Positions 7,271-29,786 of a stretch of 64,000 bases of DNA are shown in pieces; positions within the stretch are counted from its first letter, which is position 1, and each line of letters begins with the position of its first letter. The notes below the pieces were generated by a model. That model was not told where the DNA came from, did not search any database, and saw nothing but the letters and a program-made list of their open reading frames with translations. The position numbers were made by a program, and so were the translations under genes. The DNA lies in the NCBI RefSeq assembly GCF_056746865.1, contig NZ_CM163382.1; one strand, given 5' to 3'.

Positions 7271-7292
7271 TATTAGCCTCGTTGGTTAGCTA

Positions 7293-13038: not shown

Positions 13039-13039
13039 T

Positions 13040-13790: not shown

Positions 13791-13883
13791 TTAAATTTAG
13801 CTCTGTTAAAAATTTAATCCTTAACCGGAGGGATTTCTGCACCCTCAGAACATCAGGAGGCCGCCCGAAAGGGCGGTAGTTAA

Positions 13884-14717: not shown

Positions 14718-14897
14718 ATGAAAAACGCATTGCAGTTTTTGTTTGTTGCGTTCTGGTTGTTCGCATCATGTATGCCCATCATCTTCACAGCAAGGTATAT
14801 GGAAAAAGTTGATGTTTTGATATTAATGTTTGGACATATAAATGCCCTTTTTTTAGGGGTGTTCATGGCGGTCATGTGCATTGAATACTGGCGGTAA
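14718..14897 (+). CDS. Small hydrophobic membrane protein, hypothetical
   Basis: Internal Met MKNALQFLFVAFWLF...; AT-rich surroundings. Confidence 0.3.
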   Translation: MKNALQFLFVAFWLFASCMPIIFTARYMEKVDVLILMFGHINALFLGVFMAVMCIEYWR

Positions 14898-15155
14898 ATA
14901 CAGCGAACGCCATTGGTTTAGTTGGATATTTACTGTGCCGGACAAAAACGGTTTGCGGGGAAATCTTAGTTAAGTAGAATGACTGCGGGTGCTTGAGGCT
15001 ATCTGTCTCAGGCATGAACACCAAAAGGCAGATAGAGAAAAGCCCCAGTTAACATTACGCGTCCTGCAAGACGCTTAACATTAATCTGAGGCCATATCTA
15101 TGCGACACATAGAGATTAGCCTCTTACGGACCGAAAGGTCAAGGAGAAGCAGGCT

Positions 15156-15311
15156 ATGAAGCAGCAAAAGGCGATGTTAATCGCCCTGATCGTCATCTGT
15201 TTAACCGTCATAGTGACGGCACTGGTAACGAGGAAAGACCTCTGCGAGGTACGAATCCGAACCGGCCAGACGGAGGTCGCTGTCTTCACAGCTTACGAAC
15301 CTGAGGAGTAA
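15156..15311 (+). CDS. hok: Hok/Gef-family type I toxin
   Basis: 51 aa MKQQKAMLIALIVICLTVIVTALVTRKDLCEVRIRTGQTEVAVFTAYEPEE, Hok-like TM helix plus CE(I/V)R motif; AAGGAG RBS; short overlapping upstream leader ORF (mok-like). Confidence 0.85.
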   Translation: MKQQKAMLIALIVICLTVIVTALVTRKDLCEVRIRTGQTEVAVFTAYEPEE

Positions 15312-15380
15312 GAGACCAGGCGAGGGGGAAATCCCTCGCCACCTCTGATGAGTCAGGCATCCTCAACGCACCCGCACTTA

Positions 15381-15407
15381 ACCCGCTTCGGCGGGTTTTG
15401 TTTTTTC
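15381..15407 (+). terminator. Intrinsic terminator after hok
   Basis: ACCCGC-ttcg-GCGGGT hairpin followed by TTTGTTTTTT. Confidence 0.6.
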
Positions 15408-15478
15408 CTGGCATTCTGGTTTACAATTCGCACGTCAGCCTGAACACCTGACACCTGCTGCGCCAGTAGAGAAAACAG

Positions 15479-15751
15479 ATGGCGCACAAAACCAAATTTC
15501 ACAATTCTGATACCGACCTTGCCATCCGGCATGGGCGGCGTTCACACGCATTTAAAACCGACTGGTACCAACACCCACCATGTACTGAAGAACAGGCCGA
15601 ATGGCTAATTCATAACTACCGCAGACGCGGATACGAGATTAAGAAAGCCCTCAGCCTCGATTATCGTCACTGGATAATCTATGTCAGGCTCCCTTATTCC
15701 GAACGCTCACCGCGCCCATCCCGCACATTCCAGCAACGCATCTGGAGGTAA
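15479..15751 (+). CDS. Hypothetical protein (90 aa), overlaps the DUF968 gene out of frame
   Basis: ORF overlapping 15681..16802 by 71 nt in another frame. Confidence 0.3.
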   Translation: MAHKTKFHNSDTDLAIRHGRRSHAFKTDWYQHPPCTEEQAEWLIHNYRRRGYEIKKALSLDYRHWIIYVRLPYSERSPRPSRTFQQRIWR

Positions 15752-16802
15752 CGTGCGGATATTACTTCGACCTGTTCTGGTACCGGAACTCGGGCTGGTG
15801 GTCCTTAGGCCGGGCCGTGAATCCATGCCGGTATTCCACAATACCCGGGTACTGGTGGAGCCTGAACCGAAAAGCATGCACGGTCTGCCGTCCGGAGTCG
15901 TCCCTGCCGTTCGCCAGCCGCTGGCGGAGGATAAATCATTTCTGCCATTTTTCAGCGATGAGCGGGTGATTCGTGCTGCTGGCGGCGCTGGGGCACTGTC
16001 TGACTGGCTGTTGCGTCATGTCAAATCCTGCCAGTGGCCTCATGGTGACTATCATCACAGTGAAATCGTCATACATCGTTACGGTACCGGCGCGATGGTG
16101 TTGTGCTGGCACTGCGACAACCAGTTGCGCGACCAGACCTCCGAATCACTCGGGCAACTTGCTCATCAAAACCTGTCAGCATGGATGATTGACGTCATAC
16201 GCCATGCAATGAATGGCACGCAGGAGCGGGAATTGTCGCTGGCTGAATTATCCTGGTGGGCGGTCCGCAATCAGGTGGCGGACGCGCTACCGGAAGTGGT
16301 ATTACGTCGTTCGCTGGGGTTGCGTGCGGAAAAAATCCGCTCAATGTACCGTGAAAGCGACATCGTACCGGGAGAGCAGACCGCCACCAGCATACTGAAA
16401 CAGCGCACAAAAAATATTGCGCCGCTGCCTCACGCCCACCAGCAACAGAACCCACCACAGGAAAAGACGGTGGTCAGCATTGCCGTTGATCCTGAGTCTC
16501 CGGAATCTTTCATGAAACGACCTAAACGTCGCCGCTGGGTTAACGAGAAATACAAACGCTGGGTGAAGACACAGCCGTGTGCGTGTTGTGGTAAGCCAGC
16601 CGACGATCCCCATCACCTGATTGGTCATGGTCAGGGCGGAATGGGGACAAAATCTCACGATATTTTCACGCTACCGCTGTGTCGGGAGCATCACAACGAG
16701 CTTCATGCGGATCCTCTGGCGTTCGAACAAAAGCATGGTTCTCAGGTTGATTTAATTTTTCGTTTTCTTGATCACGCCTTTGCAACTGGCGTGCTTGGGT
16801 AA
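15681..16802 (+). CDS. DUF968-like protein (Cys/His-rich C-terminal domain)
   Basis: C-terminal CACCGK...HHLIGHGQGGMGTKSHD...CREHHNELH region typical of prophage DUF968/YdfU-like proteins; start uncertain (alternative ATG 15825). Confidence 0.55.
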   Translation: MSGSLIPNAHRAHPAHSSNASGGNVRILLRPVLVPELGLVVLRPGRESMPVFHNTRVLVEPEPKSMHGLPSGVVPAVRQPLAEDKSFLPFFSDERVIRAAGGAGALSDWLLRHVKSCQWPHGDYHHSEIVIHRYGTGAMVLCWHCDNQLRDQTSESLGQLAHQNLSAWMIDVIRHAMNGTQERELSLAELSWWAVRNQVADALPEVVLRRSLGLRAEKIRSMYRESDIVPGEQTATSILKQRTKNIAPLPHAHQQQNPPQEKTVVSIAVDPESPESFMKRPKRRRWVNEKYKRWVKTQPCACCGKPADDPHHLIGHGQGGMGTKSHDIFTLPLCREHHNELHADPLAFEQKHGSQVDLIFRFLDHAFATGVLG

Positions 16803-16814
16803 AAGAGGTGACTG

Positions 16815-17174
16815 ATGCTCATAGATTTGGTTTTACCTTACCCGCCGACGGTGAACACTTACTGGCGACGCCGTGGCAGCACATATTTTATTTCGGAGGA
16901 GGGAAAGCGTTATCGCCGGGCTGTGGCGCTTATTGTTCGCCAGCAGCGGCTGAAATTAAGCCTGTCCGGAAGGCTGGCGATAAAGGTGATTGCAGAGCCA
17001 CCGGATAAGCGTCGTCGCGACCTGGACAATATCCTGAAAGCACCGCTGGATGCGCTGACGCATGCGGGAGTGTTAATGGACGATGAGCAGTTTGATGAAA
17101 TCAATATTGTACGTGGTCAGCCAGTATCTGGTGGACGGCTGGGTGTGAAGATTTACAAAATTGAGAGTGAGTGA
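16815..17174 (+). CDS. rusA: Holliday junction resolvase RusA
   Basis: 119 aa; LPYPPTVNTYWRRRG and RRRDLDN motifs match RusA. Confidence 0.9.
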   Translation: MLIDLVLPYPPTVNTYWRRRGSTYFISEEGKRYRRAVALIVRQQRLKLSLSGRLAIKVIAEPPDKRRRDLDNILKAPLDALTHAGVLMDDEQFDEINIVRGQPVSGGRLGVKIYKIESE

Positions 17175-17737
17175 GCGTAAATATGATATATCCGGAAATT
17201 ACAGGCAAAAGCGGCGAGCATTTACGTCTAAAAACGCTGGAAGCAGTCTGGATCCAGGGGAAATTACGGATGTGGGGGCGGTGGCCGTATATTGGCGGCG
17301 GTAAGACGGGAAATATGTTCAACCAATTACTGACCTCTAAAAAGCTGACAAAAACGGCAATTAACGAGGCGCTCCGGAGGATGAAAAAAGCTGGTCTGGA
17401 CAAACCTGAACTTGAGGCTTTTTTGCGGGATATGATCAACGGCAATCAAAAAAGCTGGCTGGCACATTGTACCGATTCAGAGGCGTTAATAATCGACAGG
17501 GTTATTGGTGAAGTCCTGGCAGGCTATCCCGGGCTGCTCAATGTCCTGAGTCAGCGTTATGTGGGGCGGGGGATGACTAAGCGCAAAATGGCTGAACTGC
17601 TGAATGATGCACACCCGGAATGGAGTTTAAGAACCTGTGAAAGACGCATTGAGCATTGGCTAAAGGTGGCAGAATTTATTTTGTACAAACCAATGGTTAT
17701 GGCTTTTGGTATAGAGAAAAAAGTTATTGCTTTTTGA
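17171..17737 (+). CDS. Q: Late antitermination protein Q (lambdoid Q-like)
   Basis: 188 aa directly after rusA and followed by a strong intrinsic terminator (tR'-like). Confidence 0.65.
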   Translation: MSVNMIYPEITGKSGEHLRLKTLEAVWIQGKLRMWGRWPYIGGGKTGNMFNQLLTSKKLTKTAINEALRRMKKAGLDKPELEAFLRDMINGNQKSWLAHCTDSEALIIDRVIGEVLAGYPGLLNVLSQRYVGRGMTKRKMAELLNDAHPEWSLRTCERRIEHWLKVAEFILYKPMVMAFGIEKKVIAF

Positions 17738-17814
17738 CGTAAAAACTGCTTCAATTCCGGTACGCTTCGCAAAGCTGTACCACGAGGCGAATAGCAGACA
17801 TGGACATTTGAAAG

Positions 17815-17839
17815 AGCCCGCTTTTTGCGGGTTTTTTTA
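17815..17839 (+). terminator. tR'-like intrinsic terminator downstream of Q
   Basis: GCCCGC-ttttt-GCGGG hairpin followed by TTTTTTT. Confidence 0.65.
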
Positions 17840-17961
17840 TGCCTGAAAAACGGCACAGAACATTAAACGCGCTGGTGGTTGCGAATACCGGTCTTTCAGC
17901 TTGCTGGCTTTTCCGACAAGAGTTATTGGTATGTTACGTTAACCAGAAAAGGGAAAAAGAC

Positions 17962-18159
17962 ATGCTAAAACAGCAGGATATGACCGAAACCGCCAGAGTG
18001 GTGTTTAATGAGTTAAGCGTCACCGAACCGGCGACAGTCGGGGAGATTGCACAGAATACTTACCTTTCACGCGAACGCTGCCAGTTAATACTGACCCAGC
18101 TTGTTATGGCGGGTCTGGCAGACTATCAGTTTGGTTGTTACAGACACCTTCAGTCCTGA
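17962..18159 (+). CDS. Hypothetical small wHTH-like protein
   Basis: Internal Met MLKQQDMTETARV...; motif TVGEIAQNTYLSRERCQLILTQL; followed by hairpin plus T-run at 18147..18173. Confidence 0.35.
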   Translation: MLKQQDMTETARVVFNELSVTEPATVGEIAQNTYLSRERCQLILTQLVMAGLADYQFGCYRHLQS

Positions 18160-18295
18160 AGGCTTTTTTATTTGTGGTAAATGGGCGGCTGGTGGGTGTG
18201 GTGGTAGACTGGCCCCCTGAATCTCCAGACAACCAATATCACTTATTTAAGTGATAGTCTTAATACTAGTTTTTAGACTAGTCATTGGAGAACAG

Positions 18296-18661
18296 ATGAT
18301 TGATGTCTTAGGGCCGGAGAAACGCAGACGGCGTACCACACAGGAAAAGATCGCAATTGTTCAGCAGAGCTTTGAACCGGGGATGACGGTCTCCCTCGTT
18401 GCCCGGCAACATGGTGTAGCAGCCAGCCAGTTATTTCTCTGGCGTAAGCAATACCAGGAAGGAAGTCTTACTGCTGTCGCCGCCGGAGAACAGGTTGTTC
18501 CTGCCTCTGAACTTGCTGCCGCCATGAAGCAGATTAAAGAACTCCAGCGCCTGCTCGGCAAGAAAACGATGGAAAATGAACTCCTCAAAGAAGCCGTTGA
18601 ATATGGACGGGCAAAAAAGTGGATAGCGCACGCGCCCTTATTGCCCGGGGATGGGGAGTAA
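18296..18661 (+). CDS. insC: IS2 transposase OrfA (InsC)
   Basis: [40 protein letters not shown]... matches InsC. Confidence 0.9.
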
Positions 18662-19524
18662 GCTTAGTCAGCCGTTGTCTCCGGGTGTCGCGTGCGCAGT
18701 TGCACGTCATTCTCAGACGAACCGATGACTGGATGGATGGCCGCCGCAGTCGTCACACTGATGATACGGATGTGCTTCTCCGTATACACCATGTTATCGG
18801 AGAGCTGCCCACGTATGGTTATCGTCGGGTATGGGCGCTGCTTCGCAGACAGGCAGAACTTGATGGTATGCCTGCGATCAATGCCAAACGTGTTTACCGG
18901 ATCATGCGCCAGAATGCGCTGTTGCTTGAGCGAAAACCTGCTGTACCGCCATCGAAACGGGCACATACAGGCAGAGTGGCAGTGAAAGAAAGTAATCAGC
19001 GATGGTGCTCTGACGGGTTCGAGTTCCGCTGTGATAACGGAGAAAAACTGCGAGTCACGTTCGCGCAGGACTGCTGTGACCGTGAGGCACTGCACTGGGC
19101 GGTCACTACGGGCGGCTTCAACAGTGAAACAGTACAGGACGTCATGCTGGGAGCGGTGGAACGCCGCTTCGGCAACGAGCTTCCGGCGTCTCCAGTAGAG
19201 TGGCTGACGGATAATGGTTCATGCTACCGGGCTAATGAAACACGGCAGTTTGCCCGGATGTTGGGGCTTGAACCGAAGAGCACGGCGGTGCGGAGTCCGG
19301 AGAGTAACGGCATAGCAGAGAGCTTCGTGAAAACGATAAAGCGTGACTACATCAGTGTCATGCCCAAACCAGACGGGTTAACGGCAGCAAAGAACCTTGC
19401 AGAGGCGTTCGAGCATTATAACGAATGGCATCCGCATAGTGCACTGGGTTATCGCTCGCCACGGGAATATCTACGGCAGCAAGCCAGTAATGGGTTAAGT
19501 GATAACAGGTGTCTGGAAATATAG
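18619..19524 (+). CDS. insD: IS2 transposase OrfB (InsD), DDE domain
   Basis: 301-aa ORF overlapping orfA in -1 frame, typical IS3-family frameshift arrangement. Confidence 0.9.
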
Positions 19525-19879
19525 GGGCAAATCCAGGTGGTTGTTGCTTTCCCGTTGCTGAAAAAGAAAACGCCAGACTGTTAGCCGGGTATCAGTTATC
19601 TGGAGAAATTTTTAAATACCTCACAATTCAGGCGGTTGACTGTTGTCTGGTTTGCGGGGAGTTTGTTAAAAGAAACTGGCATGGTGAATCCCCCTGTGCG
19701 GAGGGGCAATCAGCAACTGGTGTTTTGTCACCGACCCTTATCCTTTCTGTGCGGGTTCAGGTGCTGATACTGAACTCACCGGGAGGCACCCGGCATCATG
19801 CAATGGCACATAGCGCCACTCTCCAGCCCCTCTCCGGAGGGGCTGTTTATATTGATTTTGTCAGATGTGAGTAAACTCC

Positions 19880-20215
19880 TTATGGACTTTGTTGTTTTAG
19901 TCCATAAGGACATATTTGCAGAGTGCAACGGTTATTAAAGCATTCATTCAATACGTTATCTGTATTTGTAGGACATTCCTGGCTGTTTTTGATTAAATTC
20001 CAGAATGTTTTATTGAATGGTACTACGTTGTAAATGGTTAAAGGTAGCACTTTGTTATTGAGCATGATACCTGTGTGAGTCAGTGTAAATATACTTTCAG
20101 GAGGTAAGAAAGCATCCGATTGATACCAGATTATTAATTTTATTTTACTCCATATGACTGAAAAAGATATTCCGCATGATGGCTGGATAACTGTATCAAT
20201 CACAATCCACTTCAT
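19880..20215 (-). CDS. IraM-like anti-adaptor protein paralogue (prophage-borne)
   Basis: 111 aa, [22 protein letters not shown]...ICPYGLK; alignable over full length with the chromosomal iraM at 57426..57749; AT-rich. Confidence 0.7.
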
Positions 20216-20460
20216 TTAGTTTCCTTGTTTATGTCTTGCTGGTGATGTTCTGAAAAGTATAAATGATATTTTTGAATGTAAACCATAGAGCAGAATTATT
20301 TTTCTGATGTTGTTTATTGTTTATTTAAATGCAGGGTGGTTTATATCTCGTCTTGTAGTTTATCCATGCATATCTGCTTGATGATGAGGTTTTTATTTAA
20401 GGTATGGTTTTGTGTTTTTTCTGTATTACATGTCAGGTATTTTAAAGAATTATTTTTCAG

Positions 20461-22437
20461 ATGGTGGAAAGAACCATGGCATTTAAACACTATGATGTTG
20501 TCAGGGCGGCATCGCCGTCAGACCTTGCGAAACGACTGACACAAAAACTGAAGGAGGGGTGGCAGCCATTTGGCAGTCCGGTGGCCATCACGCCTTATAC
20601 CCTGATGCAGGCCATTGCGGCGGAAGGTGATGTCACCACACCTGTGGTGGTGAAGCCGTCGGATGGAGAAGGCGCAGTTATCAGCACCACCAGCAACCCG
20701 GAGTATTACTTTGTTGTTGCCCTGGCCGGGCAGTCAAACGGTATGGCGTATGGTGAAGGGCTTCCGCTGCCGGAGACATATGACCGTCCGGACCCGCGTA
20801 TTAAACAGCTGGCGCGTCGCAGCACTGTCACGCCGGGTGGTGCGTCCTGTAACTACAATGACATTATTCCTGCGGACCACTGCCTGCATGATGTTCAGGA
20901 TTTGAGTAAGTTTTCACACCCGAAAGCCAGCGCAGCTCAGTATGGATGCGTGGGGCAGGGATTACATATCGCGAAGAAATTGTTGCCGTTTATTCCGGCG
21001 AATGCCGGTATTCTTCTGGTTCCGTGCTGCCGTGGTGGTTCTGCATTTTTGGCGGGCGATGAAGGTACCTTCAGCGAATCCACCGGCGCAAGCGAGACCT
21101 CGGCACGCTGGGGTGTAGATAAGCCACTGTACAAGGACCTGCTTACCCGTACTCAGGCCGCACTGAAGGCCAACCCTAAAAATATTCTGCTTGCAGTGGT
21201 CTGGATGCAGGGCGAGTTTGATTTGAAACAGGGTGCATACGCCACTCAGCCGGGGCTGTTTGATTCCATGGTGGAAAAATATCGTTCTGACCTGTCGGAA
21301 TTCGGAGGTCAGTGTCTCGGGGGCTCTCCGTCATCAGTTCCCTGGATTTGTGGCGACACGACCTACTACTGGAAGCAGACTTATTCTTCGCAATACGATG
21401 CGGTGTATGGTGCATACAAGACGAAATCCGCAAAAAAAATCTTCTTTGTGCCGTTTATGACGGATGAAAACGGGCGAAATGTGGGTACCAACGAGCCGTC
21501 AGAAGATCCGGATGTTGCGGATATTGGGTATTACGGAGCCGGTGGTCGAACGGACGCCAAAACCTGGACGACGGCTGACCGTAAAACGCATTTTGGATCA
21601 TGGGCACGTCGTGGGATTATTTCCGACCGTCTGGCAACGGCGATTCTTGTGCATGCCGGGAGAAACGCTGAATTCATTACCGGAAAACAGCCTGATACGG
21701 TGAAGCCCACCGGACCTTCCGGTGAAGGTACGGAGAGAGAGCCGGGAGCCCCGGTCAGTAACCGAACCCTGATGAGTCTGCTGGCGTCCGGCGAAGACCT
21801 GGCATCACAGGGCTGGCGCTATTATCACAAACCGGCGAGCGGAGACAATGTTAACAAAAACATTGCTGAAGCGGTGGTCAGTGATGCGGGGGCTACGGGA
21901 GGTAAGGCCCTGCAACTGAATAAACCGGAAAACCACATCTGGTTTCTGGAGCATGATGCAGCCGGACAGGGAGTGGAGTTACTGAAGAAGGGGGGACGTG
22001 TGAGCGTACGGTTTAAGTTGCCGGGTTCACTGGTGCCGAATCAGTTTGCCCTGGGCATTTACTGGCAGTTGTCGTCCCTGCCGGAGGGAGTGACGCTGGC
22101 AGAGGAAGGCAACGACATGCTGATGTCCTTCTTTCTGCAGACGGATGCGACGAACCTGAACGCGATGCACCACAAGAAGCCGAATGCGAAGCTGGAAACG
22201 TTCGGGGTCTTTGATAACGGATGGCACACACTGGCTTTTGAGTTTGCCGGAAACAACAGCATTCAGGTGACGCCGGTACTGGATGAGAAACGGGGGACGC
22301 CGTTCACACTGGTGAAATCTCCGGCATCAGGGGCGGCGGACAAACTGCAACTGACAGGCATATCAAAGGCGGCGACATATACGCTGCTGATTGACAGTGT
22401 GAAGGTGGAAGTGAACAACGCGGACATCGCGGCATGA
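20461..22437 (+). CDS. nanS-p: NanS-p-type prophage sialate O-acetylesterase (SGNH hydrolase)
   Basis: 658 aa; N-terminal MAFKHYDVV (DUF1737-like), GQSN catalytic block; typical position downstream of Q in EHEC-type lambdoid prophages; likely start ATG 20476. Confidence 0.75.
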   Translation: MVERTMAFKHYDVVRAASPSDLAKRLTQKLKEGWQPFGSPVAITPYTLMQAIAAEGDVTTPVVVKPSDGEGAVISTTSNPEYYFVVALAGQSNGMAYGEGLPLPETYDRPDPRIKQLARRSTVTPGGASCNYNDIIPADHCLHDVQDLSKFSHPKASAAQYGCVGQGLHIAKKLLPFIPANAGILLVPCCRGGSAFLAGDEGTFSESTGASETSARWGVDKPLYKDLLTRTQAALKANPKNILLAVVWMQGEFDLKQGAYATQPGLFDSMVEKYRSDLSEFGGQCLGGSPSSVPWICGDTTYYWKQTYSSQYDAVYGAYKTKSAKKIFFVPFMTDENGRNVGTNEPSEDPDVADIGYYGAGGRTDAKTWTTADRKTHFGSWARRGIISDRLATAILVHAGRNAEFITGKQPDTVKPTGPSGEGTEREPGAPVSNRTLMSLLASGEDLASQGWRYYHKPASGDNVNKNIAEAVVSDAGATGGKALQLNKPENHIWFLEHDAAGQGVELLKKGGRVSVRFKLPGSLVPNQFALGIYWQLSSLPEGVTLAEEGNDMLMSFFLQTDATNLNAMHHKKPNAKLETFGVFDNGWHTLAFEFAGNNSIQVTPVLDEKRGTPFTLVKSPASGAADKLQLTGISKAATYTLLIDSVKVEVNNADIAA

Positions 22438-22793
22438 TAAAAAAAGCCGCCAGCGGCAGGAATGGAAGCTGGCGGAGGTAATCCCAATGGAGAATGTAAA
22501 GAAAAGATGCTTTCGACATCAATCATTTCTAAATGAAAACAGTTCTCATTGTCAACCATAACGGTAAGAAATTATGACATTTATTCATCAGGTAATGCTG
22601 TACTTCTGTATGGCAGTTTGTGTTATGTATCTTCTTTCGGGTGGGTACAGGGCAGTGCGCGATTTCTGGCGCAGGCAGATTGATAAAAGGGCCGCTGAGA
22701 GAATCAGCGCCAGTCAGTCAGCCGGAAGCAAACCCGAAGATCCGCTCATTCCGTAGTCACTTTCTTGACAACACCTTTCAACGAGAAAATCCC

Positions 22794-23039
22794 ATGTCAG
22801 AAATCACATCCCTGGTCACTGCTGAGGCAGTGAAGGAAGTCCTGCGCTCTGAAGAAGTCCTGAGCGCACTGAAACAGAAACTCCGCCAGAACCTTGAGTC
22901 GCGTCTTGATGCAGAAGTGGATGCCATTCTGGATGAGCTGCTGGGCGTACCAGCGGTTCCGGAGCCGGAAGGTATCGCGGGTGACGGGAGTGCTTCAGAT
23001 GGCGGTGAACCCACACCTGACAGCGACATGATGATGTAA
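22794..23039 (+). CDS. Hypothetical acidic protein (81 aa)
   Basis: Internal Met [13 protein letters not shown]... of track ORF 22620..23039; between nanS-p and holin. Confidence 0.4.
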
Positions 23040-23115
23040 GCCTGCGCAAGGGACCATCGGTGTGTGCCGGTGGTCTTTATATTGTTGTGAGCTTCCGGAT
23101 AACGGGAGACGGGGT

Positions 23116-23331
23116 ATGTACCAGATGGAAAAAATCACAACAGGTGTGTCATACACCACGTCAGCGGTGGGAACGGGCTACTGGTTCCTGCAGTTGCTGG
23201 ACAGGGTTTCCCCGTCTCAGTGGGCGGCAATAGGCGTGCTGGGGAGTCTGCTGTTTGGGCTGCTGACGTACCTGACTAACCTGTATTTCAAAATCAAAGA
23301 GGACCGGCGTAAGGCGGCGCGGGGAGAGTAA
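23116..23331 (+). CDS. S: Holin S (lambdoid, 933W/phage-21 type)
   Basis: 71 aa [28 protein letters not shown]...; TM segments; charged C-terminus. Confidence 0.85.
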
Positions 23332-23332
23332 A

Positions 23333-24226
23333 GTGATGAATAAAAAATATGAACTGGTTGTTAAGGGGATAAATAATTACGGGGATAAGGTTACTGTTAC
23401 TGTGAAGCCGGAAGGTGACGGGCAAGCGTCGCTGTTGTTGCCAGATGTGGCGATTAGTCTTGACCGTACTGAAGGTGCCACGCTGGAGTTTTACGAAGCT
23501 GAGGCGAAAAAGCAGGCGAAGCAGTTTTTCATGGATGTTGCTGCCGGGTTATGTGAATGGAACGAACCGTTGCCGGAAAAGCGCCCCGTAATTTTAGAGG
23601 CGCAGGATGTGTTGATAACCTACAAAGGAAAGCTACCGGGAAGAATTACTTGTTCTCTGAAGATGCCGCCGTCAACACTGCGGTCAGAAAAAGATGATGT
23701 TGAATCACGTATTGAAAAACTGGAGAGCTACGTCGTTGAGCTGAATAAGAAATGGTCGATATTGGTGCCTTCTGGCGATGAAAAGCAGTTTGCTGCGTTT
23801 GACGATTATTGTCGGAAAGTGATGAGCAGAAATCTCGCAGAGTGTTTCAGTATTCATAATGATAATTTCAGTGACCCGGAATGGGAGTGTAACCGGCCAT
23901 CCTTTGTTGTATCCGGTGATGCTGGGAAAATAACCATCTCAGAAAATGGGAAAGTAACACCTCCATCGCACCAGCACAGTGAGGAGCTCATTGAATTTGC
24001 CATTGATTACCTGAAGAACAATAAAAAGCAGGGGCTGATGAAGCGCGTTGGCCGTTGCATGGGATATCTTCAGGTAGCCGCTGAGATTGAAGCGCTGGCC
24101 AGTGGTGCTGATAAGGATGCAATTGTGCGGGAGGCTCTTCTTCGTGATTTTAATACTCCACCCTTTAAAAAAGTGCCGGCTTACTGGCTTCATCCGGGGC
24201 TGACTTATCTTAAAGTGCGTATTTAG
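23333..24226 (+). CDS. Unknown 297-aa protein inserted between holin and endolysin
   Basis: ORF begins 2 nt after holin stop (GTG 23333 / ATG 23336); no TM, no signal peptide, no motif recognised. Confidence 0.6.
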   Translation: MMNKKYELVVKGINNYGDKVTVTVKPEGDGQASLLLPDVAISLDRTEGATLEFYEAEAKKQAKQFFMDVAAGLCEWNEPLPEKRPVILEAQDVLITYKGKLPGRITCSLKMPPSTLRSEKDDVESRIEKLESYVVELNKKWSILVPSGDEKQFAAFDDYCRKVMSRNLAECFSIHNDNFSDPEWECNRPSFVVSGDAGKITISENGKVTPPSHQHSEELIEFAIDYLKNNKKQGLMKRVGRCMGYLQVAAEIEALASGADKDAIVREALLRDFNTPPFKKVPAYWLHPGLTYLKVRI

Positions 24227-24262
24227 TGGGCCAGGGACAGCGGCTGAATATTTAATATATCC

Positions 24263-24796
24263 ATGAACACCAAAATCAAATACGGCCTGTCGGCTGCCGT
24301 TCTGGCGCTGATTGCCGCTGGTGCGCCTGCGCCTGACATTCTCGACCAGTTTCTGGATGAAAAGGAAGGCAACCACACCACGGCATACCGTGATGGTGCA
24401 GGTATCTGGACCATCTGCCGTGGTGCCATCATGGTGGATGGCAAACCTGTCGTTCCGGGCATGAAGTTGTCGAAGGAAAAATGCGACCAGGTTAACGCCA
24501 TTGAGCGTGATAAAGCGCTGGCGTGGGTGGAGAAAAACATCAGAGTGCCGCTGACCGAACCCCAGAAAGCGGGGATCGCGTCATTCTGTCCGTACAACAT
24601 TGGTCCCGGTAAGTGTTTCCCGTCGACGTTTTACAGACGAATTAATGCAGGTGATCGAAAAGGTGCCTGCGAAGCGATTCGCTGGTGGATTAAGGACGGT
24701 GGCAGAGACTGCCGTATTCGTTCAAACAACTGTTACGGTCAGGTATCCCGTCGTGACCAGGAGAGCGCGCTGGCGTGCTGGGGTATCGACAGATAA
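24263..24796 (+). CDS. R: Endolysin R, lysozyme with N-terminal SAR (signal-anchor-release) segment
   Basis: 177 aa; YGLSAAVLALIAAGAPAPDIL SAR segment; EGNHTTAYRDGAGIWTICRG lysozyme catalytic region. Confidence 0.9.
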   Translation: MNTKIKYGLSAAVLALIAAGAPAPDILDQFLDEKEGNHTTAYRDGAGIWTICRGAIMVDGKPVVPGMKLSKEKCDQVNAIERDKALAWVEKNIRVPLTEPQKAGIASFCPYNIGPGKCFPSTFYRRINAGDRKGACEAIRWWIKDGGRDCRIRSNNCYGQVSRRDQESALACWGIDR

Positions 24797-24919
24797 GCAG
24801 AATATTTTGCTGAAAAATGAGGAATGGCCACGCGGGCGGATAACACGAAATCCTGCGAACTGGCGAAACGTAAGTGAATAAAAGTAAAAACCCCGTTTGT
24901 TGGCACCAAGCGAGGTTTT

Positions 24920-25135
24920 GTGTTTCTGACCTTGAGTAAGGCAAGGGAGAACATGGCGAAGTGTAAACGAATTCTGTTGAGGTTGACTATGAAAAATGGC
25001 CTTGAACTGAAAGCGCCTGTAACTGATGACATCAGCAGAGCACTGGCTTTTGCCATTAAGTGGGTGGCGGTCGGTGTTGCTGTGTCCCCGATGCTGTATG
25101 GGCTGGCAAAACTGGTCATTGCGTTGAAATCGTGA
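24920..25135 (+). CDS. Hypothetical protein between R and Rz
   Basis: 71-aa ORF; C-terminal hydrophobic segment. Confidence 0.35.
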
Positions 25136-25149
25136 AGGGAGGATTAAGC

Positions 25150-25281
25150 ATGTCAGACAAACTCATAACGCTGGCGAAGATCCTCTGTGTAATTGTCGGC
25201 ATTTCATTTTCACTAATGCTGGTTGCTCTTTTTCTTTCCATGGCCTGGATGATGTTGTCTTCGTCGGGGTTGCTGGGGTGA
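25150..25281 (+). CDS. Small membrane protein (43 aa), hypothetical
   Basis: [51 protein letters not shown]. Confidence 0.3.
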
Positions 25282-25751
25282 ACATAAACCGAATGCTTTC
25301 CGCGTTTATCGTTATTCTGCTGGTGGCCTGTGGTGCGCTGTGGATGGCAACAGACCATTACCGTGATAACGCGATTACCTACAAAGCGCAGCGCGATAAC
25401 AAAGCCAGTGAACTGAAGCTGGCGAACGCAACCATTACTGATATGCAGGTGCGCCAGCGCGATGTTGCTGCGCTCGATGCAAAATACTCGAGGGAATTAG
25501 CCGATGCGAGAGCTGAAAATGAAACTCTTCGCGCTGACGTTGCCGCTGGTCGTAAGCGCCTGCGGATCAACGCCACCTGTCCAGGCTCCGTGCGTGAAGC
25601 CCCCACCACCTCCGGCGTGGATAATGCAACCGGCCCCCAACTGGCAGACACCGTTACACGGGATTATTTCACCCTCAGAGAGCGGCTGATGACGATGCAC
25701 AAGCAACTGGAAGGGGCACAGGACTATATCCGCACTCAGTGCCTGAAATAA
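25278..25751 (+). CDS. Rz: Spanin inner-membrane subunit Rz
   Basis: 157 aa; N-terminal TM; coiled-coil periplasmic region; embedded Rz1. Confidence 0.85.
25519..25689 (+). CDS. Rz1: Spanin outer-membrane lipoprotein Rz1 (embedded in Rz, +1 frame)
   Basis: [15 protein letters not shown] lipobox, proline-rich mature peptide. Confidence 0.75.
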
Positions 25752-26061
25752 GTTTTGTTGATGCGCCGTATCGTCGCTATATTCCCTCATTAACAGAGAC
25801 CGCAGCCCGACAGGGAGACTCCTCTGCGCGAGTGTGCGGGGATAATTAAAAACGATGCACACCGGGTTTTTACCGCGTTAATGATTCGCGGGTTTATCCC
25901 GGTGCGATGGTGGAAGAAACAGGAAGCTGTATTACAGAAAGTGCTACTACTGTATCCCGATGCGATGTATGTAATGTGAGTCAGATAATGGCACAGGATG
26001 TGGTGATGTGGCAGTCTGGAACACAGGATATATTGTCAGAATAAGACCCGTAGGAATAAAA

Positions 26062-26388
26062 ATGAAAAGACGCCTTTTACTACTTTTTCTGTTATCTGTC
26101 CTGGCAGTGGGATGCTCGCAGCAAAAAGCTGATGAGCCCCGGCAATTAGTGACGGTGTATCCACGATATCCGGAATATGCTGCAGCAAATTATATCAAGG
26201 GGCTGGTTGAGGTTAAGTTCGATATTGGTGCTGATGGGACTGTGACACGGATCGTTTTTCTCCGCTCAGAGCCTCATAATTTGTTTCGTGATGAAGTGGT
26301 GAAGGCCATGGCGAAATGGCGATTTGAAAAGAATCGCCCCTGTCAGGGAGTGAAGAGACAATTTATCTTTACGCCGTCACGTCCTTGA
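26062..26388 (+). CDS. Lipoprotein with TonB C-terminal-like domain
   Basis: MKRRLLLLFLLSVLAVGCSQQ lipobox; YPRYPEYAAANYIKGLVEVKFDIGADGTV resembles TonB_C. Confidence 0.55.
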   Translation: MKRRLLLLFLLSVLAVGCSQQKADEPRQLVTVYPRYPEYAAANYIKGLVEVKFDIGADGTVTRIVFLRSEPHNLFRDEVVKAMAKWRFEKNRPCQGVKRQFIFTPSRP

Positions 26389-26510
26389 TGCTTCCAGGTA
26401 GAGAGGGGCTGGACGCAGGAGAAAAATGAAAGAGCCAGCGGTTATATTTTTGTCATGGCTGACGAGGAATGATGGAAGAAGGCGTTGTATGCCACACAAC
26501 GCCTCACTGT

Positions 26511-27003
26511 TCATTTCTTCTTTTTCTCTGGTGGAACCCGATGAATAAGAGTTGCACTGGTTTCCGATGAGATGGCGATATACTCGGGCAAAGTATGCTG
26601 GCAGTTTTCCAACTGGTCAAAAATACCTGCTCTCGTCTGTTGCAATGCCTGCAGCATGCGGCGGCAATGCGCCTTGCTTTTACTAACCATCTTTCCTTCC
26701 TCTATCAGTCGCTGCGTGAACTCATCATGTAATACCAGGTAAATGCGGATGTTATCGGTTTTGGCTACGCAGCATAGTACAAAACGGACAGGGGCATCCC
26801 GGGACGGGGGAGGCGTCACATGTCCCTGTGATGGTTGTTCCGGGTAATGCACTGTGTGGGGCATAAAAATGTCCGATAATTTTACTTTCTACCGCAGTTA
26901 GTTGATTCGTTGGTCCTGGTAGCACATTGGGCGAGGATTTAAATGCCAGGCAACTGAAGGATGATGTTGCAAGGGAGATAGCGAGAATATTTCTGATTTT
27001 CAT
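26511..27003 (-). pseudogene. Possible frameshifted secreted-protein gene (two overlapping minus-strand ORFs)
   Basis: Track ORFs 26752..27072 (signal peptide MKIRNILAISLATSSFSCLA) and 26511..26864 overlap in different frames. Confidence 0.3.
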
Positions 27004-27151
27004 TTGATGATGCCTCTGTGTGAAATGACGGTAAACGACGCACTTGTGCCGGCACATAATAGCAAGCACCATAATAGATCAGATTCGATTCTTGCTGTAA
27101 GTGATAATTATTCTCGTTTTCGGGTCCTTTCCGTCGATCCAACAGGTTACG

Positions 27152-27163
27152 GGGCGGCGACCT
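27152..27163. other. cos: cosN cohesive-end site (GGGCGGCGACCT)
   Basis: ACGGGGCGGCGACCTCGCGCGTTTTCGCTATTTATGA matches lambda cos as recalled; about 220 bp upstream of Nu1. Confidence 0.7.
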
Positions 27164-27379
27164 CGCGCGTTTTCGCTATTTATGAGATTTTTTGAGGGGG
27201 TGGTTGTTGTTTAATTGTTTGGTATATCTACTTGATAAGTAAGGTGAAAATAAAATAAATACAACAACCTTACGATGTATTTTGATGTCATTAATGTGAA
27301 AAAATTCAATGATATCAAATGGTTTTGTAAAAACACATGGTTGTTGTATCGCTTTTTATCGATGACTTATGGAGAGGAG

Positions 27380-27886
27380 ATGGCCTTTTTATTGAATAAA
27401 AGTGATATGGCCTCCTCCATTGGTATCTCTGTTCAGGCATTTGATAAATGGGGCGTTCCTCCTGTTGAGCGTCGGGGTAGGGAGGTTTTTTATGACGTTA
27501 AAACTGTACTGGAGATAGATCGCGAGCGGCGACAATACAATCAGAGAACACCTGATGACGGGGGCGATCTGGAGGAAAGACTGCTTCGGGCCAGAGCTGA
27601 ACTGACAGAAGAACAGGCTGTAGCTCAAAAACTTAAAAATCAGGTAACCGAAGGTAAGCTCATCGATTCAGACTTCTGCGTTTTCGCCCTCAGCAAACTG
27701 GCGATGGCATTGTCCAGTACGCTTGATTCCATTCCGTTATCCATGCAGCGACAGTTCCCGGATTTAACGCCACGTCATATTGACCATCTGAAAACCCTTA
27801 TTGCAAAGGGCGCAAATCAGTGTGCGCGGGCGGGGGATAAATTACCGGATTTACTCGATGAATATATCAGAGCAACAACTGAATAA
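27380..27886 (+). CDS. nu1: Terminase small subunit (Nu1-like)
   Basis: Alignable with lambda Nu1 (FALSKLA...LDSIPLSMQRQFPDL); start ATG 27380 with GGAGAGGAG RBS. Confidence 0.8.
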   Translation: MAFLLNKSDMASSIGISVQAFDKWGVPPVERRGREVFYDVKTVLEIDRERRQYNQRTPDDGGDLEERLLRARAELTEEQAVAQKLKNQVTEGKLIDSDFCVFALSKLAMALSSTLDSIPLSMQRQFPDLTPRHIDHLKTLIAKGANQCARAGDKLPDLLDEYIRATTE

Positions 27887-29786
27887 TATGATGAGTGCTG
27901 TCACAACAGCATTACAGCCCCTGATAAGGGCATTGCCGGTGACGCCAGTTGAATGGGCTGATCAAAATTATTATCTGCCTAAAGAATCTTCATATGGTGA
28001 GGGAGAATGGAAAACGCTGCCGTTCCAGATCGCCATCATGAACAGTATGGGGAATGATCAGATCCGCACTGTTAATCTGATTAAATCTGCCCGTGTTGGC
28101 TATACAAAGATGTTGCTGGGAGTCGCCGGGTATTTTATTGAGCATAAATCCCGAAACAGTCTGCTTTTTCAGCCCACGGATTCTGCCGCTGAAGATTTTA
28201 TGAAGTCTCACGTGGAGGCGACGATTCGGGACGTGCCATGCCTGAAAGATCTTTCCCCGTGGCTGGGTCGTAAACATCGTGACAATACTCTCACGCTGAA
28301 ACGCTTTTCATCGGGCGTGGGCTTCTGGTGCCTGGGCGGGGCTGCCGCTAAAAACTACCGTGAAAAATCCGTGGATGTGGTCTGTTATGACGAGCTTTCC
28401 TCGTTCGAACCGGATGTTGAAAAAGAGGGTTCGCCAACCCTGCTGGGGGATAAACGTATTGAGGGCTCTGTATGGCCCAAATCCATTCGCGGCTCGACGC
28501 CTAAAATCAAAGGCTCCTGCCAGATCGAAAAAGCCGCTAACGAGTCGGCACACTTCATGCGTTTTTATGTGCCCTGTCCGCACTGTGGGGAGGAGCAGTA
28601 TCTGAAATTTGGCGATGATGCCTCGCCTTTCGGTCTTAAGTGGGAGAAGAATAAGCCAGAAAGTGTTTTCTACCTTTGTGAGCATCATGGCTGTGTGATC
28701 CATCAGTCTGAGCTTGACCAGAGTAACGGGCGGTGGATCTGTGAAAACACGGGCATGTGGACCCGTGACGGCCTGACGTTTTTCAGCGCTGCGGGTAATG
28801 AAATTCCGCCGCCGCGCTCCATCACGTTCCATATCTGGACGGCGTACAGTCCGTTCACCACCTGGGTACAGATAGTCTATGACTGGCTGGATGCACTGAA
28901 AGATCCCAACGGCCTGAAAACCTTTGTGAACACCACGCTGGGCGAGACCTGGGAAGAGGCTGTGGGCGAAAAACTCGATCACCAGGTACTGATGGATAAG
29001 GTTGTGCGTTACACGGCGGCGGTGCCTGCCCGGGTGGTTTATCTGACGGCGGGCATTGACTCGCAGCGAAACCGTTTTGAGATGTATGTCTGGGGATGGG
29101 CACCGGGAGAGGAAGCTTTTCTGGTGGATAAAATCATCATTATGGGCCGTCCCGATGAGGAAGAGACGCTGTTACGTGTGGATGCGGCGATCAACAAAAA
29201 ATACTGCCATGCAGACGGAACCGAAATGACCATTTCCCGTGTCTGCTGGGACACCGGGGGGATCGATGGTGAAATTGTCTATCAGAGGTCAAAAAAACAC
29301 GGTGTTTTCCGGGTGCTGCCGGTAAAAGGCGCATCTGTCTATGGCAAGCCGGTGATCACCATGCCGAAAACCCGCAATCAGCGGGGCGTGTATCTGTGTG
29401 AAGTGGGGACGGACACCGCAAAAGAAATTCTCTATGCCCGTATGAAAGCCGAGCCCACGCCTGCGGATGAAGCCACGTCGTATGCCATCCGTTTTCCTGA
29501 TGATCCGGAGATTTTTTCGCAGACAGAGGCGCAGCAACTGGTCGCGGAAGAGCTTGTGGAGAAGTGGGAAAAAGGAAAGATGCGTCTGCTGTGGGATAAC
29601 AAAAAGCGGCGTAACGAAGCGCTGGACTGCCTGGTGTATGCCTACGCGGCATTACGTGTGTCCGTGCAACGCTGGCAGCTTGATCTGGCTGTACTGGCAA
29701 AATCCCGGGAAGAAGAGACGACCCGGCCAACCCTTAAAGAACTGGCAGCGAAGCTGTCCGGAGGAGTGAATGGTTACAGTCGCTGA
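27858..29786 (+). CDS. A: Terminase large subunit (gpA-like)
   Basis: Extensive similarity to lambda gpA (VEWADQNYYLPKESSYGEGEWKTLPFQ, Walker A-like region, CPHCGEEQYLKFGD). Confidence 0.92.
   Translation: MNISEQQLNNMMSAVTTALQPLIRALPVTPVEWADQNYYLPKESSYGEGEWKTLPFQIAIMNSMGNDQIRTVNLIKSARVGYTKMLLGVAGYFIEHKSRNSLLFQPTDSAAEDFMKSHVEATIRDVPCLKDLSPWLGRKHRDNTLTLKRFSSGVGFWCLGGAAAKNYREKSVDVVCYDELSSFEPDVEKEGSPTLLGDKRIEGSVWPKSIRGSTPKIKGSCQIEKAANESAHFMRFYVPCPHCGEEQYLKFGDDASPFGLKWEKNKPESVFYLCEHHGCVIHQSELDQSNGRWICENTGMWTRDGLTFFSAAGNEIPPPRSITFHIWTAYSPFTTWVQIVYDWLDALKDPNGLKTFVNTTLGETWEEAVGEKLDHQVLMDKVVRYTAAVPARVVYLTAGIDSQRNRFEMYVWGWAPGEEAFLVDKIIIMGRPDEEETLLRVDAAINKKYCHADGTEMTISRVCWDTGGIDGEIVYQRSKKHGVFRVLPVKGASVYGKPVITMPKTRNQRGVYLCEVGTDTAKEILYARMKAEPTPADEATSYAIRFPDDPEIFSQTEAQQLVAEELVEKWEKGKMRLLWDNKKRRNEALDCLVYAYAALRVSVQRWQLDLAVLAKSREEETTRPTLKELAAKLSGGVNGYSR

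Follow-up and report, generated by a model that had tools for sequence, protein, structure and literature searches.

Downstream of its putative late antiterminator gene, the lambdoid prophage carried by the 64,000-nucleotide stretch of E. coli DNA analysed here (the window) is ordered like a Shiga toxin (Stx)-converting phage and holds no toxin genes, which raises the question of whether the locus descends from a toxin phage or from a lineage organised without stx. The reading adopted here, with a probability of roughly 0.9, is that a lambda-like, long-tailed prophage resides between potC and potB and that the region represents its late-operon leader and cargo zone. The window matches the chromosome of E. 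coli CFSAN061770, a strain from raw-milk cheese, at 100%, and the prophage extends over ~50 kb, from the integrase to the tail fibres; it is of the same family as the "potB island" of CFT073. Downstream of Q, a terminator, a 65-aa ORF, IS2, the STnc100 small RNA (sRNA) gene, iraL on the opposite strand and nanS-p are followed by the DUF1378 and DUF826 ORFs, the holin gene, a DUF1327 ORF, the lysozyme gene, two small ORFs and Rz/Rz1 (Table 1). The original prediction assigned this layout to positions 20461-22437, which delimit a real ORF but span nanS-p alone. The Q-stx-nanS-p-S arrangement, with IS elements inside it and multiple prophage alleles of nanS-p, is already well documented in lambdoid prophages, both Stx and non-Stx (PMC10462455, PMC8065619).

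Table 1. Features of the prophage late region, in window coordinates
Feature	Position	Strand	Evidence or detail
Q-like putative late antiterminator gene, 184 aa, DUF1133 family	17183-17737	+	Pfam
tR'-like intrinsic terminator, GC hairpin and run of 7 U	17810-17840	+	RNA fold
Late-leader 65-aa ORF, conserved	17962-18159	+	DNA homology
DUF3927-remnant ORF, 5' part	18174-18204	+	Chi octamer 18188-18195; left GGTGG 18200-18204
IS2, complete (orfA 18296-18661, orfB 18619-19524)	18205-19535	+ (late-gene orientation)	K-12 IS2A alignment
DUF3927-remnant ORF, 3' part	19536-19584	+	right GGTGG copy 19536-19540
STnc100 (RF02076) prophage sRNA gene	19650-19854	+	Rfam
STnc100 intrinsic terminator, strong	19824-19845	+	fold -20.3 kcal/mol, z -4.4
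iraL, RssB anti-adaptor of IraM family, 111 aa	19880-20215	-	NCBIfam, CFT073 match
nanS-p, sialate O-acetylesterase, 653 aa, intact	20476-22437	+	Pfam, PDB matches
DUF1378 ORF	22574-22756	+	Pfam E 2e-35
DUF826 ORF	22794-23039	+	Pfam E 4e-44
Holin S, phage 21 class II family	23116-23331	+	Phage_holin_2_1 (PF04971) E 7e-33
297-aa ORF, N-terminal DUF1327 (YdfR-like) and long C-terminal extension	23333-24226	+	
Endolysin R, phage lysozyme	24263-24796	+	Phage_lysozyme (PF00959) E 2e-24
Rz spanin	25293-25751	+	Phage_lysis (PF03245) E 2e-47
Rz1, embedded in Rz in another frame, 61 aa	25504-25689	+	lipoprotein-type signal ending VVSAC

The likeness to Stx phages, first proposed from gene order, holds at the DNA level. 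Specifically, block-by-block alignment places the region in collinearity with the long-tailed Stx2a-converting phage Stx2_95 (LC567838), in which, as in O111/O26-type Stx2 phages, the late order is the same and the DNA is homologous: after Q, positions 17827-18199 are 94% identical to Stx2_95, and homology is rejoined at STnc100. Identity is 94% over the terminator tail and the 65-aa ORF, 70% over STnc100, 73-79% over nanS-p (62% for the protein), 94% over the endolysin gene and 87% over Rz, and the small ORFs, the holin gene and the DUF1327 ORF are homologous as well. A backbone composed of the tR' hairpin, the 65-aa ORF, a cargo slot, STnc100, nanS-p, DUF1378/DUF826, S, DUF1327, R and Rz/Rz1 is, as the sequences show, common to Stx-converting and many non-Stx lambdoid phages; 392 phage records match it, the majority of them Stx1- or Stx2-converting phages. 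Stx2_95 differs as follows: it carries a methylase gene, three tRNA genes and stx2AB at the point taken by IS2 in the window; its Q is a 126-aa protein, whereas that of the window is of the DUF1133 type; and, upstream of nanS-p, 231 bp of Stx2_95 are replaced in the window by the iraL module.

The anticipated succession of Q and tR' was found as a Q-like gene followed by a strong U-run hairpin. The Q-like protein scores 349 bits with DUF1133 and 32.1 bits (cut-off 26) with Phage_antitermQ (PF06530) in Pfam, and its gene lies 3' of DUF968 and RusA, an order also seen in related prophages; it is predicted to function as an antiterminator. DUF1133 proteins are not known to have been shown to antiterminate in experiments. 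The hairpin lies 75-100 nt 3' of the gene and folds at -20.4 kcal/mol (z -4.4), a value equalled by none of 200 shuffles; Stx2_95 and phage PhiR5_1 (PV340545) have a hairpin and a T-run at the aligned tR' position, with homology to both starting at 17827. Neither a consensus scan nor a relaxed -35/-10 scan found a sigma-70-like site for the PR' promoter on the plus strand of 17450-17830, and no Q-binding/pause site was located between Q and tR', so the tR' label is based on position and on alignment with the other phages. The 65-aa ORF, whose counterpart after Q in Stx2_95 and in PhiR5_1 is ~94% identical in DNA, gives a weak match to a TrmB-type HTH (Pfam E 0.003). A terminator-like hairpin comes after it at 18147-18170; its candidacy (18147-18162) as a strong terminator was considered and rejected: at -6.8 kcal/mol it is weak at best, because shuffles fold equally well.

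At the other end of the region, S, R and Rz are all present, as predicted, together with Rz1, but they are not adjacent, since the DUF1327 ORF and two small ORFs are interposed. The phages compared likewise have extra ORFs interspersed among these genes. In Stx2a phages, too, DUF1378 and DUF826 family members are reported from the space that separates nanS-p from S (PMC10462455). In the 297-aa ORF, the DUF1327 domain covers residues 2-101 (Pfam E 3e-40); RefSeq annotates only 23336-23671 of this ORF, as a partial pseudogene, while at the same position Stx2_95 has an annotated 329-aa ORF with 79-94% identical DNA.

Between the leader and the remaining late genes lies IS2, which was expected in the tR'-to-nanS-p interval and proved to be a full-length element. 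All 1331 bases align with the annotated K-12 IS2A (1331/1331, 97.9% identity), and the element has the characteristic features of IS2: a length of 1331 bp, imperfect terminal inverted repeats, orfA and orfB with the programmed frameshift annotated in RefSeq, and a 5-bp target duplication, GGTGG, on both sides; the encoded domains are HTH_Tnp_1 and rve. The cargo slot, which in Stx2_95 accommodates the methylase gene, the tRNA genes and stx2AB, holds this complete IS2 and is otherwise empty, as the sequence shows.

By analogy with lambdoid phages, upon induction Q would load onto RNA polymerase at PR', and the antiterminated polymerase would cross tR', the hairpin after the 65-aa ORF, IS2, the STnc100 terminator and iraL (in antisense) to reach nanS-p and the lysis genes, while in the lysogen transcripts would end at these terminators. 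A different view of the activity of the region, compatible with the main reading because it does not concern identity, is that the late region is transcriptionally dead, with a polar IS2 cutting nanS-p and the lysis genes off from Q in a decaying prophage where only iraL, and perhaps STnc100 and nanS-p, would be active from promoters of their own. The position of IS2 between the Q/tR' module and all the late genes agrees with this view, as do a further insertion, of IS4, and frameshifts in three early ORFs, on account of which the prophage may be defective, and the minority status of the IS2-bearing form, found in 50 genomes versus 175 with an uninterrupted Q-to-nanS-p interval, including ATCC 25922. 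However, every late ORF examined is intact (nanS-p, holin, lysozyme, Rz/Rz1, terminase and others), and in lambda the polarity of IS insertions is classically overridden by the antiterminated polymerase. On balance, a silent late region is a possibility to be kept in mind rather than the expected state.

A clue to how the slot may have been emptied is a short ORF that IS2 splits, which the original prediction had missed. With IS2 removed, this 24-aa ORF reads VVNGRLVGVVVVAFPLLKKKTPDC and matches DUF3927 with 26.2 bits in Pfam, over profile positions 32-53 only; the IS2-free copy in ATCC 25922 carries the annotation DUF3927 family protein. Starting at 19536, the window shares 95% identity with CFT073 and with a non-Stx prophage of the O104:H4 strain C227-11, one of the NanS-p-encoding prophages of that strain. 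The latter shares the backbone, including iraL, in the order Q, orf65, cargo, STnc100, iraL, nanS-p, holin, YdfR and lysozyme, and is 92-95% identical to the IS2-free interval of the window on both sides of the junction; it lacks IS2, has a different Q type and retains ~2.0 kb absent from the window, comprising the methylase gene, tRNA Ile/Arg/Arg, a spacer and the full DUF3927 gene. This parent layout, annotated in C227-11 as Q, orf65, methylase, tRNA Ile/Arg/Arg, DUF3927, STnc100, iraL and nanS-p, is contiguous, with methylase, tRNAs and DUF3927 and without stx, in 495 E. coli genomes. The truncation of the DUF3927 ORF suggests that the 2-kb difference reflects a deletion rather than an insertion, and the remnant probably marks the place where the methylase-tRNA cassette, flanked by two short repeats with Chi sites, was lost. 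Specifically, the IS2-free sequence of the window matches one parent-layout locus (L010) at 4001-4371 and 6395-7337, the two matches overlapping by 18 nt in the query; repeats with a Chi site are located at 4360 and 6398 of that locus. In the proposed course of events, ~2.0 kb would have been lost from a C227-11-type layout between two 15-18-nt direct repeats, each with a Chi octamer, and IS2 would have inserted at the deletion junction afterwards. The window contains 17 Chi sites versus 2.4 expected from shuffles, a density that is ordinary for E. coli, and no window-wide significance is therefore claimed; only the presence of two Chi-bearing repeats at the endpoints of the deletion is singled out.

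The short junction recurs elsewhere. In the ATCC 25922 prophage, the Q-to-nanS-p interval is 99.9% identical to that of the window and free of IS2, and its nanS-p is frameshifted, whereas that of the window is intact; PhiR5_1 has the same short junction and STnc100 (96%) and, unlike the window, a 126-aa Q and no iraL. The site coincides with the left edge of the Stx2_95 cargo block (methylase, tRNAs, stx2AB) and with the IS2 target in the window. A bolder reading, put forward tentatively and judged rather doubtful, is that the late-region cargo slot is bracketed by two Chi-containing direct repeats (GCTGGTGG-GTGT) across hundreds of E. coli lambdoid prophages, one copy after the 65-aa leader ORF and the other inside DUF3927, and that recurrent excision of the methylase-tRNA cargo between them would give the "empty" form that the window shares with ATCC 25922 and PhiR5_1; the junction might then be a general hotspot. 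Whatever the reach of such a mechanism, neither the particular IS2 insertion nor the 2-kb deletion junction is more than a minor variant at the strain level.

The same junction bears on the idea that the locus is a scar of toxin loss, left when a former Stx-converting phage lost stxAB by deletion or replacement. The loss of Stx from lysogens is a known phenomenon, the backbone flanking the slot is 70-94% identical to Stx2_95, and the ~2-kb deletion junction falls exactly at the slot. Against these points, the right deletion endpoint lies inside the DUF3927 gene, which is absent from Stx2_95 because stx2AB fills the tRNA-to-STnc100 space; a comparison of the spacer and the 5' half of DUF3927 with 50,697 phage records gave no match to any Stx-converting phage; and the DUF3927 parent layout without stx is the one contiguous in the E. 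coli genomes cited above. Moreover, stxA and stxB downstream of Q, which define an Stx-converting phage, are missing: the best tblastn hit to Stx2A/B in the whole window has an E value of 0.37 and nothing falls below E 30 in the interval, which measures ~1.05 kb without IS2 and iraL, and a six-frame Pfam scan of the interval detected no RIP or SLT_beta domain, and hence no stx remnant, with DUF3927 as the sole match. The absence of stx A/B genes reported at the outset thus stood up to a sensitive search, and so did the absence of tRNA genes between tR' and nanS-p, as ARAGORN and Rfam detected none anywhere in the window. A toxin-loss origin is accordingly very improbable, and the locus appears, from its junction, to derive from a non-Stx parent layout with DUF3927 in the place of stx rather than from an Stx phage that lost its toxin.

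A relative at the insertion site, the CFT073 phi-potB prophage, fits the main reading. It occupies the same potC-potB site with the same overall gene order, and its DNA is 95% identical over a stretch that runs from the 3' end of DUF3927, across STnc100 and iraL, to the first part of nanS-p. It has its own 273-aa Q type, IS200C, three tRNA genes and the full 43-aa DUF3927 gene, and of its nanS-p only a DUF1737 fragment is left, whereas the window has an intact nanS-p, no tRNA genes and IS2.

Downstream of the cargo slot, the STnc100 gene, overlooked in the first reading of the DNA, matches its Rfam model at full length (model positions 1-206) with 133.5 bits, the gathering score being 47. In Stx2_95 the sRNA gene lies 75 nt 3' of stx2B, and in PhiR5_1 it precedes nanS-p; its location downstream of stx2 has been described (PMC12370729), and it is also treated in a preprint (bioRxiv 10.64898/2026.05.13.724894). 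The iraL module, on the opposite strand, occupies a second slot bounded by the STnc100 terminator and nanS-p, so that of the two elements first said to stand in place of the toxin, IS2 sits in the stx slot and the other does not. The latter, described as iraM-like, is indeed of the IraM family and inside the interval but is iraL rather than iraM: its product scores 161 bits with NCBIfam IraM NF007393 (cut-off 121) and shares 110 of 111 residues (99%) with CFT073 IraL. K-12 iraM was rejected as the identity or source of the gene, with 62% protein identity and unrelated flanks. The 630-bp module (19845-20474) has its own AT-rich upstream region, where a possible PhoP-type site was inspected by eye, places iraL convergent with the late transcript and is found in four deposited phage genomes. 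The potB-site prophage matches the published context of iraL, which was characterised on the potB genomic island of CFT073, where IraL binds RssB and stabilises RpoS (Hryckowian et al. 2014, PMC4045071). One residue away from that protein, the IraL of the window probably acts in the same manner and, transcribed from its own promoter, would block RssB and thereby stabilise RpoS.

The last element of the cargo zone is nanS-p, whose start is placed at the ATG at 20476, conserved in phages and used in RefSeq, instead of the longest-ORF start at 20461; homology to Stx2_95 and PhiR5_1 resumes precisely at this ATG. The suggestion of a NanS-p-type esterase is upheld by a three-domain architecture comprising an N-terminal capsid-binding DUF1737, an SGNH/SASA esterase and a C-terminal lectin-like DUF6645 (Pfam), by matches of residues 73-391 to the NanS/YjhS crystal structure 3PT5 (E 1e-118) and of residues 464-648 to NanS-p 6YP6 (E 2e-60), and by 62% identity, end to end, with the Stx2_95 protein. 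Of the catalytic blocks, the GQSN serine block (AGQSNGMAYG) is aligned with AGQSNAMAYG of 3PT5 and the histidine block (DRKTHF) with LRSSHF, and the variant of block IV, the histidine block, is RKTH, where published NanS-p alleles have RSSH, RASH or RPTH (PMC10462455). The close match of the core to 3PT5 could alternatively mark the ORF at 20461-22437 as the chromosomal nanS (yjhS) or a copy of it, but NanS, of ~330 aa, covers residues 73-391 only, leaving the DUF1737 and DUF6645/6YP6 domains as extras, and the gene sits between Q and the holin gene inside a lambdoid prophage, so that domain architecture and gene context refute this identity. The enzyme would strip 9-O-acetyl groups from sialic acids, giving the host access to Neu5,9Ac2 from mucin. 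By analogy with phi24B, for which capsid decoration through DUF1737 has reportedly been demonstrated, the protein may in addition decorate the capsid.

All these components are already in the literature, and beyond correct annotation the significance of the locus is small: it is the ordinary late region of a lambda-like prophage of a kind common in E. coli. The late scaffold of Stx phages, with an intact NanS-p and STnc100, is nevertheless widespread in non-toxigenic E. coli, where the "stx slot" can contain nothing, an IS, or tRNA and methylase cargo, and it brings fitness cargo in the form of nanS-p (use of mucin sialic acid) and iraL (RpoS stabilisation). Prophages of this sort could recombine with Stx phages. 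If the junction is truly a hotspot, it might drive the acquisition and loss of cargo in the late region, including that of toxin genes.

The Q-proximal late region has the layout of a Shiga-toxin-converting lambdoid phage and lacks the toxin genes, as originally predicted, and this interpretation is supported by gene content, synteny with the Stx2a phage Stx2_95 (LC567838), and a negative stx search. When 17100-25800 was compared with 50,697 phage records, the majority of the 392 matches were Stx1- or Stx2-converting phages, and the blocks shared with Stx2_95 lie on both sides of the slot, 3' of a 65-aa ORF, where that phage carries its methylase, tRNAs, and stx2AB (see table). The Q-(methylase)-stx-nanS-p-(DUF1378/DUF826)-S layout has been described with IS elements inside it (PMC10462455), and the EDL933 and O104:H4 prophages hold multiple nanS-p alleles that outnumber the stx genes of those strains (PMC8065619). 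This is an ordinary feature for which the literature already has an explanation; the papers cited here leave undescribed just two strain-level details, namely where exactly IS2 inserted and the Chi-flanked junction of a putative 2-kb deletion.

Features of the prophage late region and their counterparts in Stx2_95
Feature	Window position	Stx2_95 position	Identity or score	Remark
Integrase end of prophage	~595			adjoins potC
sok RNA	14987-15158		107 bits	Rfam
hokD	15156-15311			annotated
Q-like (184-aa DUF1133 gene)	17183-17737
First hairpin (tR'-like)	17810-17840
Shared block	17827-18199	2501-2871	94%	terminator tail, 65-aa ORF, small-ORF start
IS2 + 85 nt	18200-19620	2872-5709	none	Stx2_95: methylase, three tRNAs, stx2A, stx2B
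IS2	18205-19535		1331/1331 bases, 97.9%	to annotated K-12 IS2A; transposase in late-gene direction
Shared block	19621-19844	5710-5942	70%	STnc100
STnc100 sRNA gene (RF02076)	19650-19854		133.5 bits	gathering score 47
iraL module	19845-20474	5943-6173 (231 bp)	none	replaced segment
iraL ("iraM-like"), minus strand	19880-20215		161 bits	NCBIfam IraM, threshold 121
Shared block	20475 onward	6174 onward	73-94%	nanS-p, small ORFs, holin, DUF1327 ORF, lysozyme, Rz
297-aa ORF	23333-24226			DUF1327 (YdfR-like) N-terminus + long extension
Tail-fibre end of prophage	~52,160			adjoins potB

The predicted Q, terminator, and S-R-Rz elements are all recognizable by Pfam, RNA folding, and ORF content. DUF968, RusA, and the DUF1133 protein, which also exceeds the Pfam threshold for Q21-type antiterminators (32.1 bits vs 26), precede a strong hairpin with a U-run about 75 nt past the DUF1133 stop codon (-20.4 kcal/mol, z -4.4); consensus promoter scans of the + strand from 17450 to 17830 did not locate PR'. 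The phages compared diverge in the Q gene and in the DNA as far as the terminator stem, which fits the idea that Q may move with its promoter and binding site as a single specificity module. Downstream of nanS-p, the order is DUF1378, DUF826, a phage-21-type holin, the 297-aa DUF1327 ORF, lysozyme, two small ORFs, and Rz with an embedded Rz1 lipoprotein ORF. Between holin and endolysin, the 297-aa ORF may represent a real, longer gene, since Stx2_95 has an annotated 329-aa ORF in its place with 79-94% DNA identity; RefSeq calls only 23336-23671, as a partial pseudogene. Past Rz, 26062-26388 encodes a 108-aa protein that is little more than a TonB C-terminal domain (Pfam TonB_C, E 7e-13). The related phage vB_EcoS-640R1 carries bor at about this place, and the protein could interfere with TonB-dependent phage or colicin uptake.

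The ORF at 20461-22437 proved to be a real gene for a predicted NanS-p-type esterase. Its product contains DUF1737, SASA, and DUF6645 domains (Pfam); residues 73-391 match the E. coli NanS/YjhS crystal structure 3PT5 (E 1e-118), with the serine (GQSN) and histidine blocks both aligned, and residues 464-648 match the phage NanS-p C-terminal domain 6YP6 (E 2e-60). The gene is intact because its alignment to the 648-aa NanS-p of Stx2_95 runs end to end (62% identity), whereas the copy of ATCC 25922 is frameshifted in an otherwise identical locus. Translation is assigned to ATG 20476, the RefSeq start and the exact point where phage homology resumes; ATG 20461 was rejected as a conserved start, as it sits in unrelated upstream DNA. 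The iraL module replaces the nanS-p ribosome-binding region GGGAGG of Stx2_95 and of the non-Stx phage PhiR5_1 (PV340545) with GGTGGAAAG. All tested prophage NanS-p alleles of O157:H7 EDL933 and O104:H4 gave active esterases (PMC8065619), and for phi24B, binding of the DUF1737 domain to capsid hexons has been described (bioRxiv 10.64898/2026.04.10.717836).

Neither toxin nor tRNA genes were recovered from the interval, in keeping with the prediction. Using Stx2A and Stx2B of Stx2_95 as tblastn queries (word size 2, E up to 100) returned noise only, with a best E of 0.37 and nothing below E 30 in the interval, and when the Q-to-nanS-p interval, with IS2 taken out, was scanned with Pfam in all six frames (E up to 10), DUF3927 was the sole hit and neither a RIP nor an SLT_beta domain appeared; the sensitive search for stx homologues was thus negative. 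ARAGORN found no tRNA in the whole 64 kb, nor did Rfam in 14000-28000.

The interval was said to hold IS2 and an iraM-like gene; both are present, the latter being iraL instead of a K-12-type iraM. IS2 (HTH_Tnp_1 and rve domains) ends in imperfect terminal repeats and is flanked by a 5-bp GGTGG duplication. The interval rebuilt without IS2 and one GGTGG copy was found uninterrupted in 175 complete E. coli genomes, with 99.9-100% identity in ATCC 25922 and other strains; the RefSeq annotation of ATCC 25922 has a 24-aa "DUF3927 family protein" over the insertion point. For these reasons, IS2 evidently entered this tiny ORF recently. STnc100, whose 3' end folds as a strong terminator, lies 75 nt 3' of stx2B in Stx2_95 and 5' of nanS-p in PhiR5_1, and such positions next to stx or esterase genes are published (PMC12370729; Pas sRNAs, bioRxiv 10.64898/2026.05.13.724894). 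The gene beside it is, by its sequence, iraL: 110 of 111 residues are identical to the protein at the same spot in the potB-site prophage of CFT073. A K-12 iraM identity was rejected, the protein being just 62% identical and the flanks unrelated. Four deposited phage genomes have the 630-bp module between Q and holin, at 98% identity. Its AT-rich iraL/nanS-p intergenic region (20216-20475) contains a tandem TTGTTTA-TTGTTTA repeat (20310-20323). The iraM gene of K-12 is PhoP-regulated, and PhoP half-sites are TGTTTA-like, to which this candidate repeat upstream of iraL may be compared. IraL of CFT073 was shown to bind RssB and stabilize RpoS in log phase, and the "potB genomic island" was reported as the site of its gene (PMC4045071).

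Of the 53 positions in the DUF3927 profile, the 24-aa ORF matches just the C-terminal part (32-53). In CFT073 the DUF3927 gene is complete (43 aa), and a spacer and three tRNA genes lie 5' of it. A chimeric query was built from Stx2_95 (leader, methylase, and tRNA block) and CFT073 (spacer, DUF3927 gene, and STnc100 start). At least 80% of it was covered at a single place in 495 E. coli genomes; among the matches listed, O104:H4 strains had it unbroken (100% coverage, 95.7% identity). O104:H4 C227-11 is annotated as Q, the 65-aa ORF, methyltransferase, tRNA Ile/Arg/Arg, DUF3927, iraL (minus), SASA esterase, and holin, with no stx. With IS2 removed, the window sequence aligns to this locus at 4001-4371 and 6395-7337, the two matches overlapping by 18 nt in the query; the C227-11 sites read GGCG-GCTGGTGG-GTGT/TAGG and GTGT-GCTGGTGG-CGGGTGT/GGTGG, and the window junction GGCG-GCTGGTGG-GTGT/GGTGG. 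The two-part match and these repeats thus indicate that the window has the C227-11-type non-Stx layout minus ~2.0 kb (methylase, three tRNAs, spacer, and DUF3927 5' part). The endpoints are two 15-18-nt direct repeats, each with a Chi octamer (4360 and 6398 of the C227-11 locus), and the change was probably a deletion and not an insertion because the DUF3927 ORF is truncated. The junction lies right at the left edge of the Stx2_95 cargo block (methylase, tRNAs, stx2AB), and CFT073 homology starts there. That the prophage is a former Stx phage after toxin loss is unlikely, because the parent of this junction carried DUF3927 and not stx; in Stx2_95, stx2AB takes the spacer/DUF3927 space, and the spacer with the DUF3927 5' half matched no Stx-converting phage in the 50,697-record collection.

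The small ORF split by IS2 (18174-18204 and 19536-19584) is a chimera marking the putative deletion. Two same-strand Chi sites (17871-17878 and 18188-18195), 317 bp apart on either side of the 65-aa leader ORF, are both kept in Stx2_95, PhiR5_1, and C227-11. The window holds 17 Chi sites, a density typical of E. coli.

Bases 16000-28000 are found at 100% identity in the chromosome of E. coli CFSAN061770, from raw-milk cheese, and at least 80% of these 12 kb is present in 50 complete E. coli genomes. RefSeq annotation of the matching record delimits a ~50-kb lambdoid prophage, from the integrase by potC to tail-fibre genes by potB, with lambda-type terminase, portal, S49 protease, gpD-like decoration protein, major capsid protein, tape measure, and gpJ; CFT073 has a close relative at the identical site. 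The prophage splits potABCD between potB and potC (~1-600 and 52160-54400), so potCD transcription must start within, or run across, the prophage end; potB and potC are both annotated intact, likewise in CFT073. An IS4 transposase gene (~4568-5914) lies in the early-left region between an exonuclease gene and DUF1482/dicB genes, and three early ORFs (~12576-14597) are annotated as frameshifted, so the prophage may be defective. A hok/sok-type toxin-antitoxin locus occupies the nin-like region.

From the parts and order observed, a working scheme can be proposed. In the lysogen, transcription from 3' of Q would end at the first hairpin, while STnc100 and iraL would be expressed independently and IraL would lift RpoS levels. 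Upon induction, Q-modified polymerase would pass the hairpins, IS2, and the STnc100 terminator and then cross iraL antisense, expressing nanS-p and the lysis genes, and NanS-p would take O-acetyl groups off mucin-derived Neu5,9Ac2.
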